Source: a virus. Taken from it: a stretch of DNA of 64,000 bases. A program made the translations under genes and the position numbers. Position 1 is the first letter of the stretch; each line of letters opens with the position of its first letter. The stretch spans positions 2,025-66,024 of IMG/VR virus record IMGVR_UViG_3300010049_000014. One strand, 5' to 3'. This document shows, piece by piece, positions 1,466-64,000 of this stretch. The notes under the pieces were generated by a model that worked only from the letters and a program-made list of their open reading frames with translations, did not search any database and was not told where the DNA came from.

Positions 1466-1758
1466 GAACAAGACCTTACCGATGGCAACAAGAGGCTTTT
1501 GTCTTGTTTAGAGACGTAAAAGCATTTATGCTTAATGTTTGTTGTGGGGCCGGGAAGACGTTTGCGGGAATATGGATAGCAACGCATAAAGCACTTCCAG
1601 TGATTGTTATAGCGCCCAAAACTTTATGCAGCCAATGGAAGGATGAGCTTATGTACGAAGGTATAAAGGAAGACGATATTTTTGTGTTCGACCAACCTAC
1701 ATATTCAAAAAATCCAAAACAATACAGGGAGGCGTTTTCACAATGGCTTCAAAGCTAA
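1462..1758 (+). CDS. Stand-alone SF2 helicase N-terminal fragment (Q motif, Walker A, motif Ia)
   Basis: PYRWQ, CGAGKT, VIVIAPKTLCSQW. Stops after 98 aa, before any Walker B. Confidence 0.75.
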   Translation: MRTRPYRWQQEAFVLFRDVKAFMLNVCCGAGKTFAGIWIATHKALPVIVIAPKTLCSQWKDELMYEGIKEDDIFVFDQPTYSKNPKQYREAFSQWLQS

Positions 1759-3173
1759 TGTATCGTGACACTGGCTTCGAGTACGTCAGAGGTTCGGAGA
1801 AAGTGTTGTTTAGTAACGGCGTATGTATAACAACTATGGAGTATCAAGAGTTTGATAAAAAGAACATAATGGTACACGAGATTCTACAACGCGCAAAAAA
1901 GGGTGTTCAACTGTACGATTTTGCTCATGCAGTTAAAGAAGGACAACTACGGCCTATCAAAGCGAGTATTCCAGAACGACCTGCCATTGCAAGGAAAGAG
2001 AAACCAACACTCTCTACACCTACTGTAGAGAAAGTGGTGTCCGACACAAGAACAGAAGTAGTTAATGTCTCTCATTCTCTTAGTGTATCTGATATTGATG
2101 AACTTCTGTCAGAGGAGCAGAAAGAAAGTACACAAACGGCGGAGCCTGAAGCTGAAAGCTATCCAATGTCAGAGCTTATGAATTATTTTACAAAACAACA
2201 AAAAGAAAACCCAAAGCCTGAAGTCCCGGAGATGTCGTCCTTTGCAGAGAGGCAAAAGGGGCTTGAGATACCACCTATGACATCCAATGTCATACATCCC
2301 AAAGAAAACGATATTCCGTACTGGAAAACAGTTCCGTTTATCGTGGAAGTAATCATGCTTCTTGTAGCAGGCGGTTCTGCTGTGATGTCGGCGTATCATA
2401 CAGTACTGTTTATGTCCGGCGTACTAGGCCGTCCTGAATGGGTGTCTTTATTTATTGGTATCATTCTCATTCTCTTTTCTGCTTCATCTTTTACTGCTTC
2501 AAGGCATTTCTTTATGGAGAAGGGTGTGTCCAGTAAAGTTTTTGGTTCAGCATTTGTGTTTTTAGGCATACTTGTTGTTGTATTTTCCATGTTTTCTACA
2601 ATGGGTGTATCACACCAACAATTTGCATGGCAGGAGAAAGATGCTGCAATGGCGGTGATAGAAGCCCGTACTGAAGCAGCTACAGCGCAGCAGACGCGAG
2701 AGTTTATGGAATTAGAAGTGCGGAGGCTTGACAATGAAATCGCAAGGACGCAGGAAGAAATCAGAACCCATACTACCGACAGTAGAAGCCATACTACAGA
2801 TGAGCATACATACCAAGCGCAAGAATTGTGGGGACTTAGGAACATCGCAAGACAAAACAGAATCACGTCGCAGCGTGAATTATCGCAGGCGCAGGAAAGA
2901 CTATCCGTATTTAATAATCAACGTAACGAAGCGTGGGAAAGTCTCGTTAGTTCCAGTACAACAGGGATTGTTGCATCAAGCATCATTAGTGCGGAACGAG
3001 GCGACATATTTACCATTACAGCCAGTGTACTCAACACTGAAGAAGAAACACTAATGTTTTTCATATACACTTTACCTGCTGTGTTTTTTGACCTTGTTGC
3101 GCCTTTTGGCGTGACCATCATATTACTTTTAGAAGACAGAAGACGAAGGAGAAAATTAAATGAAAGCTGTTAA
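1743..3173 (+). CDS. Multi-pass membrane protein with coiled coil
   Basis: Acidic N-terminus, three hydrophobic helices around aa 200-290, heptad-rich segment, C-terminal TM. Confidence 0.75.
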   Translation: MASKLMYRDTGFEYVRGSEKVLFSNGVCITTMEYQEFDKKNIMVHEILQRAKKGVQLYDFAHAVKEGQLRPIKASIPERPAIARKEKPTLSTPTVEKVVSDTRTEVVNVSHSLSVSDIDELLSEEQKESTQTAEPEAESYPMSELMNYFTKQQKENPKPEVPEMSSFAERQKGLEIPPMTSNVIHPKENDIPYWKTVPFIVEVIMLLVAGGSAVMSAYHTVLFMSGVLGRPEWVSLFIGIILILFSASSFTASRHFFMEKGVSSKVFGSAFVFLGILVVVFSMFSTMGVSHQQFAWQEKDAAMAVIEARTEAATAQQTREFMELEVRRLDNEIARTQEEIRTHTTDSRSHTTDEHTYQAQELWGLRNIARQNRITSQRELSQAQERLSVFNNQRNEAWESLVSSSTTGIVASSIISAERGDIFTITASVLNTEEETLMFFIYTLPAVFFDLVAPFGVTIILLLEDRRRRRKLNESC

Positions 3174-3495
3174 AAGATTTTTTACGCAGGTACTCACAGC
3201 GGCAATTGCTACCATTGTTATCGTTGGCACGCTTGCTATCGTATGCGGACTACTGACACTGGTTGTCATGGGTGGTTTTGTTACGGTAGGTATTATTTTT
3301 GATTTATCGTTGCCATATAAAACTATAGCCGCCTTGACCCTATTAGCTGTCATGGCGGCTATTGGTATCTTAGCCATTAAAAAATATTCAGATGGCAAAA
3401 AGATAATTAAGGCGCAGGCTGGAAACGTGCCTCAAACACCCTCTCCTGCCCAGGGCCAGGAGCAGTCACAACCAACACCGCCGTCAAATCAGTAG
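3160..3495 (+). CDS. Small membrane protein (2 TM)
   Basis: Long hydrophobic N-half. Its 3' end overlaps the convergent minus-strand gene by 89 nt. Confidence 0.6.
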   Translation: MKAVKRFFTQVLTAAIATIVIVGTLAIVCGLLTLVVMGGFVTVGIIFDLSLPYKTIAALTLLAVMAAIGILAIKKYSDGKKIIKAQAGNVPQTPSPAQGQEQSQPTPPSNQ

Positions 3496-3886
3496 ATACC
3501 GGGACAGCAGGGTCGAAGTCAACATCTTCAGGGTAAACAGGGGCAGAAAGGAACCAGCCTGTGAACACAAAGCCAGCGCCTGGCATAGCCTGTGCTACAA
3601 TGCGCCTGCCTGAAGGTATTGTGAACTGTTGTGGCGTAGCAATAGAACCAGCGTCTGCTGCTGCTTGTGGTGTTACTGACATCCTGAAGAACACAGGTGG
3701 TGTTATTTCAGGTATGTTCACGTCAAGACCTGTACGTGTGCGCTGTATCTGATTTATGGGGTTTGTCATGGGGTCATCCATGTCCTCAAAATCTTCAGTC
3801 ACCTGAATTGAATTACTGCGTACCGCAAGTTTTTCCGTACCGTCCTGGTACGTTATGCGATACTCTGACATGATTTTACGTGCCAT
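3407..3886 (-). CDS. Putative virion protein with InlB-B-repeat-like beta domain
   Basis: AGGAGG SD. Motif AMPGAGFVFTGWF...FEARF. Last gene of the structural run. Confidence 0.6.
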   Translation of the reverse strand: MARKIMSEYRITYQDGTEKLAVRSNSIQVTEDFEDMDDPMTNPINQIQRTRTGLDVNIPEITPPVFFRMSVTPQAAADAGSIATPQQFTIPSGRRIVAQAMPGAGFVFTGWFLSAPVYPEDVDFDPAVPVSTDLTAVLVVTAPGPGQERVFEARFQPAP

Positions 3887-3896
3887 AAAAAGCCTC

Positions 3897-4379
3897 CTAA
3901 ATAATTATATCGAGCCACAGCGGTATTATTTTATTTACCGCAGGCTTAATGAATCCCAAAACAATTCGCCCAATTTTTAATATCCACATCGCGATAATCG
4001 CGAACCATAGCCAGAAGTTCATTTGTCTGCTCTTGGCTAACTGTTCCTCTATTATCATTAGCCGCGTTGATAAGTCTATTGACCTCTGCGTCATACTGCT
4101 CAAAGAGGAATATAATCCTGTCAATTCTGTCTGTGATGCTATTCGCTCTTGTTCGGATAGCCTCAAGTCGTTCGACCGTTCCTCCAACAAGGCTATCGTA
4201 TTCACTAAGTCTGCGCTCATAGTCAGCATTTCGCCTTTCAAGGTCTGCAATTCTTCGCGTATACTCGATGCTGTCGATGTCAGCGACTGCGACTGTCCTG
4301 CATCCTGTGATAAAAACAGCAAGCAAGATAATAATAACAAAATAAAACTTCCGCATATACGCCCCCAATTTCTTTTCAT
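3897..4379 (-). CDS. Spanin-like membrane protein (N-terminal hydrophobic segment, coiled coil, C-terminal TM)
   Basis: GGAGGGAG SD. FILLLLSCLLFL N-terminus, heptad repeats, C-terminal FWLWFAIIAMWIL. Confidence 0.65.
   Translation of the reverse strand: MKRNWGRICGSFILLLLSCLLFLSQDAGQSQSLTSTASSIREELQTLKGEMLTMSADLVNTIALLEERSNDLRLSEQERIASQTELTGLYSSLSSMTQRSIDLSTRLMIIEEQLAKSRQMNFWLWFAIIAMWILKIGRIVLGFIKPAVNKIIPLWLDIII
3946..4356 (-). CDS. Nested lipoprotein, o-spanin-like
   Basis: ATG at 4356 with GGGGG SD. Signal MRKFYFVIIILLAVFITG-C, then coiled coil. Lies entirely within 3897-4379 in another frame. Confidence 0.7.
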   Translation of the reverse strand: MRKFYFVIIILLAVFITGCRTVAVADIDSIEYTRRIADLERRNADYERRLSEYDSLVGGTVERLEAIRTRANSITDRIDRIIFLFEQYDAEVNRLINAANDNRGTVSQEQTNELLAMVRDYRDVDIKNWANCFGIH

Positions 4380-4673
4380 TTAATCTCCCTCCGCGCCTTT
4401 TTCCATGTTCACTGCAATACTTCCATCTATTTGAGACACAATATATAAGAGATTACCAAGGTGCATTTCCTCATCGTGCATAATTTCTTCAAGCCTGTTG
4501 ATAACACCTTTCTCATCTTTATACCCACTCTCTTTAAGACAGTCGATTATTTCAGCATAAAGATTTTGCGCTGATAATTCGTCTGCCGCTGCTCCACGTA
4601 ATGCCCGAATAATTTCGGATATTCTCATAAACTTGCCATTACGGGGCAAGCACCGTGTCTCTACCTTCGCCAT
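4380..4673 (-). CDS. Ferritin-like (two-helix, half-ferritin) protein
   Basis: DELSAQNLY and IMHDEEMH (ExxH) di-iron ligand pattern. Confidence 0.7.
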   Translation of the reverse strand: MAKVETRCLPRNGKFMRISEIIRALRGAAADELSAQNLYAEIIDCLKESGYKDEKGVINRLEEIMHDEEMHLGNLLYIVSQIDGSIAVNMEKGAEGD

Positions 4674-24549: not shown

Positions 24550-25607
24550 TACGCTGCCTCCTGGTCTACATTTATGTATATGTTCATATTGTCAATTAGT
24601 TGTCCTGAAGCATAGAACACATGGTTTATGAAAGGGTCTAATCCCAACTCCCTACGCCTTTCCGCAGTAGCTTCAGTTATAGCACTATAATTAAGGTTTA
24701 TCTCACCTGTAGAAAGCATCACAATAATGTCCTGTCTTATTTCTTCTGCCACACGCTCAAGCTCGGCTTTATAATAAGCATTTCTCCATATAGCAAAATC
24801 GTCAATTCCAAATGTTTGGCCATAGGTAAACTTAATATCTTGCGCCTGCGCCGCAGAAGCAGAAAGAAGCCTGCCGGTTCCGGCCTGCTGGATACGGGCG
24901 CGTGGGTTGTTTTTATACTGCCTGATTGCTTTGTATAAGTCTTCAGACATCGCTTTATTTATTTTATCTTTTACTTCAATAAATGAATGATAACAACCTC
25001 TTTCCCTGAAGTGCTGGTTAAAGTACGTAGTTACAAAATACTCGCCTTCATTAAACCCAAGGCATAAAAACTCGTACAAAAGTCTGAATGTGAACCCGGA
25101 CTTGCCGTATTCACCTACAGAACTTTGTCCAGTTCTGCCGTAGCGCATTTTGTGTATTTGTTCACTCATATTGCCAACCATCGTGAAAAATGTTGTGTTT
25201 GAGAACTTATTATCACGAACAGCATCTGTGAAGTTATAAAGGATTTCAAAATTGGTAAAGCCCATACTGCTGTCCATCATTTCAGCATCCCAATCGAACT
25301 TGCTTTCATCTGTACCAACGTACCATTCATAAAGCGCATCCAAGTGCATTGGCTTTGACGTGCGTGCTACTATGTCTATTTCAGGCATATCTCTAGCCGA
25401 AGTACCACGATACCCACTACCCAAACTTTGCTTTGAAAACTTTTTCTCGTGTGCTGTAAGCTGCATTAGCGCAGCGTCATCAAGATAGCGTGCGAATATC
25501 TCTCTTTCTTCTTCCTCAAACGGGTCGCCTACACTTCTTGTGCGGCGTTGTCTGTACATATTGTGCGGGTCTGAAGATGTGAAAGGAAAATCTCGCCTAG
25601 TACGCAT
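24549..25607 (-). CDS. Neck protein, HK97 gp10-like C-terminus
   Basis: C-terminal AITEATAERRRELG...FYASGQLIDNM. Confidence 0.45.
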   Translation of the reverse strand: MRTRRDFPFTSSDPHNMYRQRRTRSVGDPFEEEEREIFARYLDDAALMQLTAHEKKFSKQSLGSGYRGTSARDMPEIDIVARTSKPMHLDALYEWYVGTDESKFDWDAEMMDSSMGFTNFEILYNFTDAVRDNKFSNTTFFTMVGNMSEQIHKMRYGRTGQSSVGEYGKSGFTFRLLYEFLCLGFNEGEYFVTTYFNQHFRERGCYHSFIEVKDKINKAMSEDLYKAIRQYKNNPRARIQQAGTGRLLSASAAQAQDIKFTYGQTFGIDDFAIWRNAYYKAELERVAEEIRQDIIVMLSTGEINLNYSAITEATAERRRELGLDPFINHVFYASGQLIDNMNIYINVDQEAA

Positions 25608-26004
25608 TAAGAATACGCTCCTCTACCTGCATATTTGGTACTTGTTGGTCGGTTGGGCCTGCCACAATCACCAGCTTGTGTACCGCAAAACCGCCCTCTC
25701 GTGCAAAATTGTTATCCTGCAAAAACTTAAATAACTCTCCGCTGTCCTCTACGTACATACCTTGCCTGATTGTACTGTTCGGTATCTCGTCGAAGCAATA
25801 AAATTTCGCCTGTTGTCCTTCTACAAATGTCCCGTCCGGCGCTGCCGCATCGCCCCCCGTATCCCTGGAGAGGTATGCTCTCATCGTCTTGTAGGGAGTA
25901 CGCGGTGTAAATCCCCCGCCCACCAGTGGTGACATACTGAATACTGTGTACGAACGCAGGAGTTCCGGGAAACTTGTCAGTAAATCGCCATAAACGCCTG
26001 GCAT
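25597..26004 (-). CDS. Putative head-closure protein
   Basis: Likely start MPGVYG at 26004. Position in the neck module. Confidence 0.5.
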   Translation of the reverse strand: MPGVYGDLLTSFPELLRSYTVFSMSPLVGGGFTPRTPYKTMRAYLSRDTGGDAAAPDGTFVEGQQAKFYCFDEIPNSTIRQGMYVEDSGELFKFLQDNNFAREGGFAVHKLVIVAGPTDQQVPNMQVEERILNAY

Positions 26005-26023
26005 TAAACACCGCCTTACCCTA

Positions 26024-26347
26024 TTATTCGACCTTGCCAGGGTTTGGCGCTGGGCTCCAAACAGGGGCGTTGGGAGCTTTGTCTGCTTTAGACGGCGAAG
26101 AAGGAGCGGACACCGCACCGCCAGCCGCCCCCTGTTTCGAGCTTCTCATTGGAAGAATTCTGCCAGTGACAATGCGCACCTCATCCATGAAAACCTGTCC
26201 AAGTTCTTTTTTTACTAAGTCTTCCATACAGTCACGTATAGATTCCAGTATCGGATAGCAAACGCCAGGTCTATATGGCGCTCCTCTGATTGTACATGAT
26301 ACGTGTACAATAAAAAATCGTGGTAAATTTTTGTTTACTTCTCTCAT
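26024..26347 (-). CDS. Hypothetical protein
   Basis: Coupled to the upstream gene. Low-complexity C-terminus. Confidence 0.5.
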   Translation of the reverse strand: MREVNKNLPRFFIVHVSCTIRGAPYRPGVCYPILESIRDCMEDLVKKELGQVFMDEVRIVTGRILPMRSSKQGAAGGAVSAPSSPSKADKAPNAPVWSPAPNPGKVE

Positions 26348-34804: not shown

Positions 34805-36373
34805 CTAGATAAAACGCCAACCGCCCTGGGTCAGTATCATATACTGTTTTGCGGTAGGATTATACCAATACTGGTTTAGTTGCGCGTTTCGATCTGATGT
34901 AGCAATAGTGGAGCCTGATGTTGGGTATCTTCCTGTGTCTGAAAACTGTAGCCCTGACGGTGCACTGCTCATACGTACTTCGCGTAACACAAGCCAACCT
35001 AGTAGCCCTGTGTATATTGTTTTGCGTTCTGTAAGCCCTTTCATGTCACCAATGCTGACATCACGCTTGTCATTTCTGAATCCATCCTGTTCAAGTAACG
35101 CAAGTAATGTTTGCGTACTTCCTTCATCTGCGATAGCTACATGACCAAAACTGTTGTTTGCTGTAGCGCCCCAAATAAGTTTTGCGCCTTCAGGCGGTAT
35201 AAGCCCTTCCTGATATTGTATACGAAAATACGCTGCGCTTAGTTTTGGTAAGTATTCATACCTTGTGTATAACTCATGTGCGCCACCTACACTTTCAAGG
35301 TCTGTAATGAAGTCTACGCTGGCACAATGATCACGAAAAACATCAACGCAATTATGTACGTAATAGTTATTAACTGTGTACGTATGATCGCCTGTAACGG
35401 ACAAATGATAGACAGTTTTAATACCTGCTGATTCCGTGTCTAATACATAATTACCTACAAAAGCATTTTTATTATTTCTTGCAAGTGTAAGTGTATATAA
35501 ATCTTTTTTCCTAGTACCATGCTTTCTTCCACCACTGCCATCAGGAAAAGTTGTAGGAGTTCCTGCAATTGACTTCAATCGCAGCGCAGCAGTTGAAAAC
35601 CCACAGCGTAATGCGGCTGCCTGTACTGCTAATAATAATCCTAGCGATGTATTACATATCACATCACTTTTATGTTTTGTACTGCCATCAGCGGCAATAA
35701 GACCCTCAATAATCAGTAAACATTCACGATTAGTATATTTTCCAACTAAAATTTTATTCCTTGCACTGTCGTAACATTGTCTTATAACCGACGCAAGGCG
35801 CTCATGCTTAGCTGCGTAAAGCCTAGATACACACGCATTTTCACATTCGTGGTGTTCCTTTGTTTTAAGTGATATGTTCAAACTATCTAAAAACATCACA
35901 TCCTTTCGCCTGTTATGCGTTACTATTATTTCATCATTGCGACAATCATGGTGTATACGCAAACTACCATCGCCTAACCAAAACCCAAGAAATAACAATT
36001 CGCTATCTGTTAAACCACTTTCCTCTGTAACCTTCTCTGTGAACACCTCCGGCTTTTCTCCAGTTTTTGTTGCTGTAGCAATAGGTTTAAATGCGCCAGA
36101 CTTCATAAGATACGGATGCTCTGGCGTAACAATAATGTCGCTAAGATGCGTTCTATAAAGCACACATTCAGCTTCTCTTTGTGTTTTTCCTATTACCGTA
36201 TTGTTTCCATAAAAGCCAACAACACTATCTCCTTCTTTTATATTTTCTATTGCCTTGTACGTACCATCAGCAAGAAGTACCATTGCGCCTGCTGGATGGC
36301 ACTGCCCGCCATATTTTTTATCATAATCTATAATAGTTCCTAATTTTCTATCCCGCCATTGCCTGTGTGTCAT
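34805..36373 (-). CDS. CHAP-domain endolysin interrupted by an intein
   Basis: Exteins join as DYDKKYGGQ|CVDVF, and later ANNSFGHVAI and LEQD (CHAP Cys/His motifs). Spliced length 205 aa. Confidence 0.9.
   Translation of the reverse strand: MTHRQWRDRKLGTIIDYDKKYGGQCHPAGAMVLLADGTYKAIENIKEGDSVVGFYGNNTVIGKTQREAECVLYRTHLSDIIVTPEHPYLMKSGAFKPIATATKTGEKPEVFTEKVTEESGLTDSELLFLGFWLGDGSLRIHHDCRNDEIIVTHNRRKDVMFLDSLNISLKTKEHHECENACVSRLYAAKHERLASVIRQCYDSARNKILVGKYTNRECLLIIEGLIAADGSTKHKSDVICNTSLGLLLAVQAAALRCGFSTAALRLKSIAGTPTTFPDGSGGRKHGTRKKDLYTLTLARNNKNAFVGNYVLDTESAGIKTVYHLSVTGDHTYTVNNYYVHNCVDVFRDHCASVDFITDLESVGGAHELYTRYEYLPKLSAAYFRIQYQEGLIPPEGAKLIWGATANNSFGHVAIADEGSTQTLLALLEQDGFRNDKRDVSIGDMKGLTERKTIYTGLLGWLVLREVRMSSAPSGLQFSDTGRYPTSGSTIATSDRNAQLNQYWYNPTAKQYMILTQGGWRFI
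35351..36301 (-). mobile_element. Intein (317 aa) with LAGLIDADG homing endonuclease
   Basis: Block A CHPAGAMVLLADG, block B VTPEHPY, LGFWLGDGS and EGLIAADGS, block F VYHLSV, block G VHN/C. Confidence 0.95.
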
Positions 36374-36786
36374 ACTTTCACTCCTTGAAATAATTTCTCA
36401 CCTAAGCCACCAATACCCTTATAAATAACATCATAAGCAATGGTAGCAAGAGCAACAATAAGCCCTAAGAAGAAATACATGGCAGTAACAACAGCAGGAA
36501 CTAGTGGACTTATAAATATAGTCGTTATTATACTAATAAGCAAGATGGTAATTTTCTTTTTTCGTTTATGTTTTTTATATTCTTTTGTGTGCGCTCTTAC
36601 AGGCGCTTCTTTAAGTAAAGGACATTCGCTTTTTTCTTCAGGAGTTTCGTGATATTTCTTAATATTACTGCCTTTCCCACAAATGAAGTTCGTCCAGCCC
36701 ACAACTACAATGGCACCCATTAGACATAAAAGCCATATTACGTTAGGGTCTGTCGCAAGTAACGCACCCATATCTGCTATGTTCAT
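36370..36786 (-). CDS. Holin candidate
   Basis: About three TM helices with a basic loop. Coupled (ATGA) to the endolysin. Confidence 0.6.
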   Translation of the reverse strand: MNIADMGALLATDPNVIWLLCLMGAIVVVGWTNFICGKGSNIKKYHETPEEKSECPLLKEAPVRAHTKEYKKHKRKKKITILLISIITTIFISPLVPAVVTAMYFFLGLIVALATIAYDVIYKGIGGLGEKLFQGVKV

Positions 36787-37334
36787 ATTAAATCAAAGCC
36801 TCCCCCTGCAATTGCTTTTTCTACCTGCGGTATCTTCCAATCCGGCACTGCAAGCGTAAGACTTTTATATATTACCGGGTACTCAATGCAAAAAGACACA
36901 CAATCGTTCTTCATTGTGTGATTAAAGCCTTCATGGACATATTTAAGACCCGCACACATACGCTCCTCATTATCTAGTGTGGGTGAATAAAACATCATTT
37001 TTAAATGGTCAACAAAAATGCCATCGACCTTTTTAACGATGGCATTGATAAGTTCTGTTTGTTCCATTAAGTCTTTTTTATTCTGTAATGCAATCTCTTT
37101 GTACTGCACCTTACTTTCATTTATTGATTCTTTAAGCTCATCAAATCTGCCCCAAAGTGTCTTAAAAGTCTGTGCTGTCTGTTCATCCATGCCTTCCATT
37201 GATAATTCAACCCCAGCAGCACCTGCCTTTAGTGTTTTTACTTTTCTCCCACGACGCAAAAATACGATGAGTGAAATTATAAGCGCGACAATCACCGCGG
37301 CATCTAGTATGATTTTTATGTATTCGTGCATCAT
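36783..37334 (-). CDS. Single-TM coiled-coil protein (holin/antiholin-like)
   Basis: N-terminal TM then a helical domain. Lies within the lysis cassette. Confidence 0.55.
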   Translation of the reverse strand: MMHEYIKIILDAAVIVALIISLIVFLRRGRKVKTLKAGAAGVELSMEGMDEQTAQTFKTLWGRFDELKESINESKVQYKEIALQNKKDLMEQTELINAIVKKVDGIFVDHLKMMFYSPTLDNEERMCAGLKYVHEGFNHTMKNDCVSFCIEYPVIYKSLTLAVPDWKIPQVEKAIAGGGFDLI

Positions 37335-62790: not shown

Positions 62791-63221
62791 TTGAATTGAC
62801 ACACACTATTATAACAGTACCGAAGCACGCGCTGGACGCAGAAGCACACATAAGAAACGGGCTGAAGCCTTTTGTCGAGGAAAACAAGCATATCATCGAC
62901 AACGGATGTATGATTCGTGTAGCACTGGTACACCGCGTAAACAAAAAAAGGTCTAGTGCAGTAACAAACGAGACCGCACTACAGACACTTCTTTCTGCTT
63001 CCGGGAAGGATGTGATCACATACACTGAAGGTGATATTATACTCAATTTCAGACAAAATCTTTTTACGAACAAAAAGAAACCTTTTCACCTTACAGCGCA
63101 GGAGAAGCTCATGCTTTATAAAAAGATATTTATGCAGGCTGAAAATATTCCGTATTACGCGCAAATTGTAGGAAATCTGCGAAAAAGGCTAGGGAAAGAT
63201 TTTCTTGCAGGCGTAATATGA
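62787..63221 (+). CDS. Hypothetical protein
   Basis: Coupled on both sides. Confidence 0.6.
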   Translation: MIELTHTIITVPKHALDAEAHIRNGLKPFVEENKHIIDNGCMIRVALVHRVNKKRSSAVTNETALQTLLSASGKDVITYTEGDIILNFRQNLFTNKKKPFHLTAQEKLMLYKKIFMQAENIPYYAQIVGNLRKRLGKDFLAGVI

Positions 63222-64000
63222 ATGTGACGTTTAATACAGAAGATGTTACGGTCTACATTGCTGGTGCAGGTAGTGGTAAAACAACTGCTCTTATGGGTGA
63301 ATTGACCTCCATGCTTAAAGAGTATCGCCCTGATGAGATAGCTTTTACCACCTTCACCCGTAAAGGTGTCTTGACAGGAATAGAAAGGGCGCTAAATACT
63401 AATGCCTCTCTTAATCCCGAAGACCTTATCTATTTTCAAACACTGCATCGTATGTGTTTTCACGAAAGCAAATTAAAACGAAAAAATATAATAGAGCCAA
63501 GGGATATTGTAAAGTTTAATCGTTTGCTTGGATTTAATCTTTCAGCTAGTGCAATGGCAAACACATTTGGTAATCACACAGAAGACGATAAAATGCTACA
63601 GCGTTATGATGCTATACGTTCAGAGGCAGACACAGGTATTTTTATTCATTCTATGTATGATGAGGAGCGATATAATAGGCTCGTTAATGCGTATGAGGTG
63701 TTTAAAAAGGAGAATGACCTTGTTGATTTTTATGACTGTTTACTTCGGTACAGGGAAATCGGAAAACCACTTCCTGTTGCTGCCTTTTTTCTTGATGAAG
63801 CCCAGGACGTTACGCCCCTTCAGTGGGAAGTCGTGCAAATGGCTTCTCGCAATGCAGAAAAGATACGTATTGGAGGCGACCCGGCACAAAGTATATTCTC
63901 CTATCAAGGTGCTGTTCCCGCAACACTCATATCGCTTGCGAAGCGACATACGACAGTGGAACTTAATAGTACTTATCGCCTACCTGAAAAGATATGTAAG
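63218..64000 (+). CDS. UvrD/Rep SF1 helicase (3'-truncated by window)
   Basis: Translated by hand: AGAGSGKT, AFTTFTRK, FQTLH, FLDEAQD, GGDPAQSIF, STYRLP. Not in the ORF track. Confidence 0.9.
   Translation, partial: MNVTFNTEDVTVYIAGAGSGKTTALMGELTSMLKEYRPDEIAFTTFTRKGVLTGIERALNTNASLNPEDLIYFQTLHRMCFHESKLKRKNIIEPRDIVKFNRLLGFNLSASAMANTFGNHTEDDKMLQRYDAIRSEADTGIFIHSMYDEERYNRLVNAYEVFKKENDLVDFYDCLLRYREIGKPLPVAAFFLDEAQDVTPLQWEVVQMASRNAEKIRIGGDPAQSIFSYQGAVPATLISLAKRHTTVELNSTYRLPEKICK

Follow-up and report, generated by a model that had tools for sequence, protein, structure and literature searches.

A stretch of about 480 bases on the minus strand of the DNA of an uncultured gut phage codes for two different envelope proteins in two reading frames. 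The DNA analyzed is a stretch of 64,000 nucleotides, here called the window, and all coordinates refer to it unless a relative is named. Both frames are genuine genes under purifying selection, and the stretch is truly dual coding. The pair most likely forms a two-component, spanin-like disruptor of the outer membrane, in which an inverted inner-membrane partner with a C-terminal anchor would work together with a long helical lipoprotein. For the pair, we infer the lysis function, the lipidation, the topology, and the binding of the two products to each other. Such a pair probably represents a novel means of disrupting the outer membrane of the host at lysis.

Layout of the two reading frames

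The outer open reading frame (ORF) extends from position 3897 to position 4379 on the minus strand and encodes a protein of 160 amino acids. This protein opens with a signal-like segment, continues as a helical rod of about 95 residues, and ends in a membrane segment followed by a short conserved tail. The inner ORF (3946 to 4356, minus strand) is in a frame offset by 2 and encodes a lipoprotein precursor of 136 amino acids whose mature part is helical. The initial annotation had placed a lipoprotein ORF within a 160-amino-acid ORF in another frame, and the ORF coordinates on the minus strand confirmed this layout. The open run in the same-strand alternative frame was 143 codons, or 0.89 of the gene, which was the largest among the 65 primary ORFs of the window; for these ORFs, the median was 0.23 and the 95th percentile was 0.59 of the gene length. 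ORFs in a same-strand alternative frame were also seen inside longer ORFs at 25727 to 26011 (94 codons, within 25597 to 26118, minus strand) and at 63528 to 63998 (157 codons, within 63218 to 64000, plus strand). A second copy of the pair near the endolysin gene of the window was ruled out, since the window has one copy only.

The ATG of the outer ORF (4379 to 4377) is preceded by a Shine-Dalgarno (SD) sequence, GGAGGGAG, read from the sequence at 4385 to 4392 on the minus strand. The TAA of an upstream ORF of 97 amino acids (4382 to 4380) sits between the two, with the ATG immediately 3' of the TAA. The ATG of the inner ORF (4356 to 4354) has a weak SD-like run, GGGGG (4362 to 4366, minus strand), 5 nt on its 5' side, and an alternative TTG start for the same ORF is found at 4368 (minus strand).

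The inner product begins with M-R-K, followed by a hydrophobic core and then by F-I-T-G-C, which is a standard lipoprotein signal. The lipobox I-T-G-C occupies positions 4300 to 4311 (minus strand), with the codon of Cys19 at 4302 to 4300. The same bases code for S-Q-D-A in the outer frame, where the motif is variable (SQDA, SQAV, SLDA, or SADV). The mature part of the lipoprotein, about 115 residues long, is helical and contains no proline, and no Asp follows the Cys.

In the outer product, residues 1 to 24 (4308 to 4379, minus strand) form a putative cleavable signal peptide with a basic n-region and a hydrophobic core of 14 to 16 residues, which would end before a conserved Gln. In the window, this N-terminal hydrophobic stretch contains L-L-S-C. 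The middle of the protein is long, polar, and heptad rich. Residues from about 120 to 144 (3948 to 4022, minus strand) make up the C-terminal membrane segment, with a conserved internal Lys/Arg; the C-terminal transmembrane segment reported by the initial annotation is present as a hydrophobic segment. Past the inner stop codon, an outer-only tail of 16 residues (3897 to 3945, minus strand) codes for the conserved end N-K-I-I-P-L-W-L-D-I-I-I. No Cys is found in the mature outer protein of the window, and the inner product has the lipobox Cys and a nonconserved Cys132.

Conservation of the two proteins among relatives

The comparison was based on 22 distinct loci, namely, the window, 12 close relatives, and 9 distant relatives, all relatives being metagenomic; the window and the 12 close relatives are the 13 close sequences referred to below. 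The DNA of the loci was obtained by look-ups of the encoding contigs, by a metagenome scan, and by a scan of IMG/VR with distant family members. Both frames were open at all 22 loci, with identities down to 23 to 29% for the outer protein and about 30% for the inner one. The F-I-T-G-C lipobox proposed earlier for the 136-amino-acid product was verified, and its Cys was found in 22/22 loci; it was also near invariant in the wider family of the inner protein. At the 13 close loci, the lipobox took the form [F/I/L/V]-[T/S/G]-[G/S]-C, as judged from the motif only. The outer proteins of the 22 loci had in common a signal-like N terminus ending in S/A-Q, a helical middle part, and a C-terminal hydrophobic segment with an internal Lys/Arg; their tails ended in P-x-W-L-D-I-I-I or a similar sequence. 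One conserved Cys was found in the outer rod of the distant relatives.

Called proteins for the family were found in a large protein collection, nine from the inner frame and three from the outer frame, showing that gene callers choose one frame or the other. With a profile of the inner protein, 267 clusters (at the 50% identity level) were detected at an E value of ≤1e-3 among 1.84 billion representatives; 124 of these had an E value of ≤1e-10, and most were lipoproteins of 105 to 125 amino acids. Neither frame belonged to a PHROGs or Pfam family. No match was obtained by blastn and tblastn against 50,697 phage records, by scans of IMG/VR with single proteins and with one protein alignment, or among 185,579 species genomes. 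A Foldseek search of the PDB with the inner model gave no match at an E value of ≤0.001, the matches returned being generic helices.

Evidence that both frames are coding

We considered the explanation that one frame is the gene and the other a shadow ORF driven by composition, or that a programmed frameshift fuses the two frames. First, synonymous codons were shuffled with one of the two proteins kept fixed. In the window, the other frame was open in 1.3% (inner) or 4.6% (outer) of the trials. Across the close loci, the probability that the inner frame was open with the outer protein fixed was 0.0006 to 0.065 per locus, and that of an open outer frame with the inner protein fixed was 0.009 to 0.11, with one locus at 0.60. 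At the nine distant loci, the inner frame was open in 0 to 2 and the outer frame in 0 to 21 of 100 trials. Profiles built from the 13 close sequences were then compared with 406 six-frame ORFs of the nine distant loci, and each matched its own frame only (E values of 1e-9 to 1e-59). The profile score of each frame was higher than those of all 100 synonymous shuffles of the other frame, in both directions and at 9/9 distant loci.

The substitution pattern also carried the mark of two proteins. The mean pairwise identities at the first, second, and third codon positions were 0.73, 0.73, and 0.55 for the outer frame and 0.58, 0.75, and 0.72 for the inner frame; the wobble position of the inner frame is the second position of the outer frame. 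The 4-fold-degenerate sites of both frames were counted under conserved residues. At those of the outer frame, 0.60 to 0.62 of the bases were identical where the inner protein is conserved, versus 0.34 to 0.40 in the membrane segment and the tail. At those of the inner frame, the identity was 0.69 to 0.85 throughout. By column, the fraction of outer-frame positions with the same codon was 0.69 in the part where the inner protein is conserved and 0.42 in the rest (Mann-Whitney test, p = 2e-9). In the outer-only tail (3897 to 3945), the protein was conserved while the 4-fold sites were near saturation (identity of 0.34), which is the signature of single-frame coding. The drop in the identity of the outer-frame 4-fold sites sets in where the conserved lipoprotein region ends, and in two relatives (L015 and L019) the inner frame stops there. 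Therefore, the last 25 to 35 residues of the inner product of the window are probably dispensable. The constraint is mutual: among the homologues, where the conservation of only one frame would have spoken for a single gene, both frames were kept open in 22/22 loci and each limited the synonymous sites of the other.

Two observations spoke for a single gene. A codon model trained on the long genes of the window called the inner frame coding and the outer frame off-frame, so that composition alone would have discarded the outer ORF. Such an off-frame score is expected for an overprinted gene, but it gives the outer frame no support by itself. The other observation concerned the opposite strand, where an antisense ORF of 144 amino acids (3949 to 4383, plus strand) covers the whole pair and shows about 70% identity between loci by BLAST. 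Conservation in BLAST searches is therefore weak proof of coding on this DNA, and the further tests described above were needed. The antisense frame, used as a negative control, is poor in stop codons; it was open at 6/13 close loci, the window among them, but it had gained 1 to 4 stops at 7/13. A third, antisense coding frame was rejected because of these stops; the antisense ORF is a shadow ORF that owes its existence to the dual-coding constraint. A frameshift fusion was also rejected: the two frames possess separate start codons and separate N-terminal targeting signals, which makes a frameshift unnecessary. Given the open frames at every locus, the reciprocal constraint on synonymous sites, and profile scores above those of every shuffle, we regard a single coding frame, or a frameshift product, as highly improbable.

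Start codons of the two frames

At 21/22 loci, the start codons of the two frames were only 2 to 5 nt apart behind a single SD sequence, for example, TAAGGAG or GGAGG. Three arrangements were found. In ATGTG, the ATG starts the outer frame and the GTG at +2 starts the inner frame; in ATGnATG, the inner ATG is placed 4 nt before the outer one; in ATGnnATG, the outer ATG comes first and the inner ATG is at +5. All twin starts were at a distance of 5 to 10 nt from the SD sequence. The usual layout of the family is thus a near-total, colinear overlap of 350 to 460 nt from one start site.

The window is the exception. It has GAA as the codon at +2, and its lipoprotein begins at an in-frame ATG farther downstream, 23 nt after the outer start. 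The separate inner start with its GGGGG run is specific to the window, whereas the relatives have twin starts and one SD sequence. The initial annotation had described a nested inner ORF with an SD sequence of its own; this description holds for the window, with its 23-nt offset and GGGGG, but not for the family. Since the window alone differs from 21 loci with twin starts, the nested layout with its own SD sequence is a derived state.

Predicted structures and topology

The structures of the two proteins were predicted with AlphaFold2. The model of the inner protein had helices at residues 27 to 72, 77 to 102, and 108 to 132, with a mean pLDDT of 82. The outer protein was modeled as one helix from residue 5 to residue 144, with a mean pLDDT of 79 and values of 80 to 93 over residues 40 to 140. 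Co-folding of the two periplasmic parts gave a score of 0.04, which was counted neither for nor against binding.

The N-terminal hydrophobic segment of the outer protein is short (14 to 16 residues) and signal peptide-like, and the long anchor is at the C terminus (residues 120 to 144, approximately). The signal is predicted to be cleaved before the conserved Gln. Cleavage is supported by the short hydrophobic core and by the shape of the model, since a single straight helix from residue 5 to residue 144 cannot have both ends in one membrane. It is nevertheless uncertain, because Phe or Leu at position -3 before the Gln is a poor match to the usual signal peptidase I site.

Genomic context of the pair

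In the relatives, the gene directly upstream of the pair ends 0 to 11 nt before it and usually encodes a small cell wall hydrolase. These neighboring hydrolases are single-domain proteins of 130 to 220 amino acids, and their types differ from locus to locus. The upstream gene encodes a CHAP protein in L006, L013, and L020, in L002 by homology, and weakly in L016; a Peptidase_M15_4 protein in L017 and L023; a DUF261 protein in L015 and L019, with DUF261 located downstream instead in L007; a C39-like peptidase in L012; and a class 3 lipase (Lipase_3) in L014 (920 to 1588 of that locus). In L025, a lipase gene (2921 to 3556) is found two genes upstream. A member of a holin family (Dp-1 type) is encoded 2.3 kb upstream of the pair in L007. 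A constant pair beside interchangeable, unrelated wall hydrolases is typical of the mosaic of lysis cassettes and implies late expression.

Several other genes were observed near the pair in the relatives. The Lipase_3 genes inside the lysis cassettes of L014 and L025 may encode a lipid-attacking lysis enzyme. Just downstream of the pair, many relatives encode a conserved protein of about 110 amino acids with a signal peptide, an H-P-P-G motif, and the C terminus D-Y-x-L-R-L (L002, 6671 to 7003; L008, 1158 to 1457; L014, 2146 to 2460; L016, 6216 to 6545; L017, 1104 to 1457; L020, 4554 to 4886). This protein may add another envelope component to the cassette; in the window, the pair has no copy of it alongside. 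On the 155-kb contig of L002, a reverse transcriptase gene (RVT_1, 2433 to 3578) is located about 2.4 kb upstream of the pair and a tyrosine integrase gene 1.8 kb downstream, which may together represent a diversity-generating element in a temperate relative.

In the window, the pair ends the tail gene operon and is located outside the lysis cassette, 30 kb from the endolysin gene. The latter is an ORF of 522 amino acids (34805 to 36373, minus strand) whose product is an intein-interrupted endolysin of the CHAP type. In relatives, its orthologue comes directly before the pair; the identity to the CHAP proteins of L013 and L002 is 43 to 49% over both exteins, and the distance of about 30 kb between pair and endolysin noted from the beginning still holds. 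Another ORF (36783 to 37334, minus strand) matches a cassette gene of the same two relatives. As judged from these homologies, the lysis cassette of the window phage is split, with the CHAP endolysin and the cassette gene 30 kb away from the pair. The 97-amino-acid ORF that abuts the pair, its TAA followed directly by the ATG of the outer frame (4380 to 4673, minus strand), occupies the slot of the endolysin gene of the relatives and had a weak, subthreshold Pfam match to rubrerythrin/ferritin-like proteins (E value of 0.013). Two convergent ORFs for membrane proteins (1743 to 3495, plus strand) face the end of the late operon; one encodes 476 amino acids with several hydrophobic segments and a coiled-coil part, the other encodes 111 amino acids with three hydrophobic segments and a Q/P-rich tail, and neither had a family match.

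Among 72,556 plasmids, homologues of the DUF261 neighbor were found only in Borreliella, on lp54-type plasmids. Together with the short endolysins, this hints that the host is possibly a two-membraned gut bacterium, perhaps a spirochaete.

A spanin-like role and its alternatives

The position of the pair directly after unrelated types of endolysin genes in the relatives supports a spanin-like role. The initial annotation had proposed a new spanin architecture in two versions, an inverted i-spanin with an o-spanin or a unimolecular spanin (u-spanin) with a nested o-spanin. What stands of this reading is the dual coding, the presence of a lipoprotein, the C-terminal anchor, and, as a prediction, a spanin-like role; the first version fits the anchor at the C terminus of the outer protein and the lipobox Cys of the inner protein in 22/22 loci. 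The second version does not, since the Cys of the outer protein is absent or misplaced at most of the 22 loci.

We propose the following mechanism for the spanin-like pair. The inner product, in which no Asp follows the Cys, would be acylated at this Cys and routed to the outer membrane. Export of the outer product would rely on a short Sec-type signal, which would then be removed before the conserved Gln. The mature outer product would be a type I inner-membrane protein, held by its C-terminal segment and with its N terminus toward the outer membrane. Its rod of about 95 residues, modeled as an uninterrupted helix (approximately 14 nm), would reach outward. Combined with the modeled lipoprotein, which has a helix of 46 residues and two shorter ones, the rod would have a length adequate to bridge the periplasm. 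Once the endolysin has removed the wall, the two rods could draw the membranes toward each other. In the layout common to the family, two starts 2 to 5 nt apart are fed by a single ribosome-binding site, which would keep the two proteins at a fixed ratio; in the window, the lipoprotein start would have slipped 23 nt downstream. The pair could equally be viewed as a T1-like unimolecular spanin that has handed its lipid anchor over to another protein.

Alternatively, both proteins could be real and serve another task in the envelope: superinfection exclusion or a block of DNA entry, as with lipoproteins such as Llp, Cor, or Ltp; the timing of lysis by an antiholin-like periplasmic sensor pair; or remodeling of the envelope. 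Phage lipoproteins with roles in exclusion are known, the pair of the window comes after tail genes and far from the endolysin gene, and binding between the two products is a prediction. In most relatives, however, the pair is translationally joined, across a gap of 9 to 11 nt, to endolysin-type genes of at least four unrelated families, and a separate holin candidate is present in L007. Moreover, two complementary anchors on long rods suit the bridging of the periplasm better than the blocking of a receptor. We consider such another task rather unlikely.

It is extremely unlikely that the outer protein belongs with T1 gp11 among the unimolecular spanins, the inner ORF being an accessory or a second o-spanin: L-L-S-C near the N terminus together with the C-terminal membrane segment suggests this in the window, but the reading fails and was rejected because the lipobox-like Cys is not conserved across loci, being missing in L006, L008, L014, and L015 and in a nonlipobox context in L007 and L017, with L-L-G-C in only a few loci against an inner-frame Cys in 22/22, and because the conserved S/A-Q at the end of the outer hydrophobic core fits signal peptidase I and not signal peptidase II.

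Comparison with known lysis proteins

Rz of phage lambda is a type II protein with an N-terminal membrane segment, and its partner Rz1 is a proline-rich lipoprotein of about 40 mature residues. As in Rz/Rz1, the same DNA specifies two envelope proteins through two frames, one a lipoprotein of the outer-membrane type and the other a membrane-anchored protein with a helical periplasmic rod. In most relatives, unlike in the window, the pair also follows the endolysin gene as the last element of the lysis cassette, as Rz/Rz1 does. The differences are as follows. The anchor of Rz is N terminal, while that of the outer protein is C terminal, behind a signal-like N terminus. The lipoprotein has about 115 mature residues and is helical and proline free, compared with about 40 residues and a proline-rich composition in Rz1. 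Disulfide links of the Rz-Rz1 type are impossible in the window, because the mature outer protein is without Cys; the pair thus lacks Cys residues for intermolecular disulfides. In embedded spanins, the o-spanin gene starts at 0.4 to 0.5 of the i-spanin length (Kongari et al. 2018, PMC6139136), as Rz1 does within Rz, whereas the two starts are 2 to 23 nt apart here, with an overlap of 350 to 460 nt. There is no sequence similarity between the pair and Rz/Rz1. Because the partner is not of type II, because the lipoprotein is long, helical, and proline free, because the pair of the window lacks the Cys for disulfides, and because the layout is not the embedded type, the pair is outside the known spanin families as defined.

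The outer protein has the same end-to-end plan as T1 gp11, with an N-terminal export signal and a C-terminal inner-membrane anchor. The difference is that gp11 carries the lipobox itself, whereas here the lipid anchor is on a separate protein from another frame and the Cys of the outer protein is not conserved. The twin starts resemble the dual starts of lambda S105/S107, which share a reading frame, so that a single protein is made in two forms. In both cases, one ribosome-binding site with two close starts would set a fixed ratio of two lysis proteins, but the starts of the pair are in different frames and lead to two unrelated proteins.

Implications for spanin diversity

To our knowledge, overlaps of about 140 codons with both products folded and conserved are very rare in cellular and phage genomes, and we found no paper describing a pair arranged in this way. 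Since a large family has retained this overlap, it offers a clean natural example for studying how one sequence can encode two helical proteins. The chances seem to us evenly balanced that the pair is the founding example of a large undescribed class of spanins (at least 267 lipoprotein clusters at 50% identity), carried by phages of gut spirochaetes or of similar two-membraned hosts. In this class, a type I rod and a long helical lipoprotein would be encoded by the same DNA over essentially the full length of both proteins, with twin starts served by one ribosome-binding site that would lock in their stoichiometry.

Known searches for spanins look for a type II protein with a short embedded lipoprotein. 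As these searches are based on the type II topology and gene callers report one frame, such pairs are invisible to standard annotation, and they may explain some of the phages listed as "spanin-less." The ATGTG and ATGnATG twin starts offer a model, open to direct testing, of how initiation can set the ratio of two proteins. If the role in lysis is true, either end of the inner-membrane spanin partner can carry the anchor, which would constrain models of membrane fusion.
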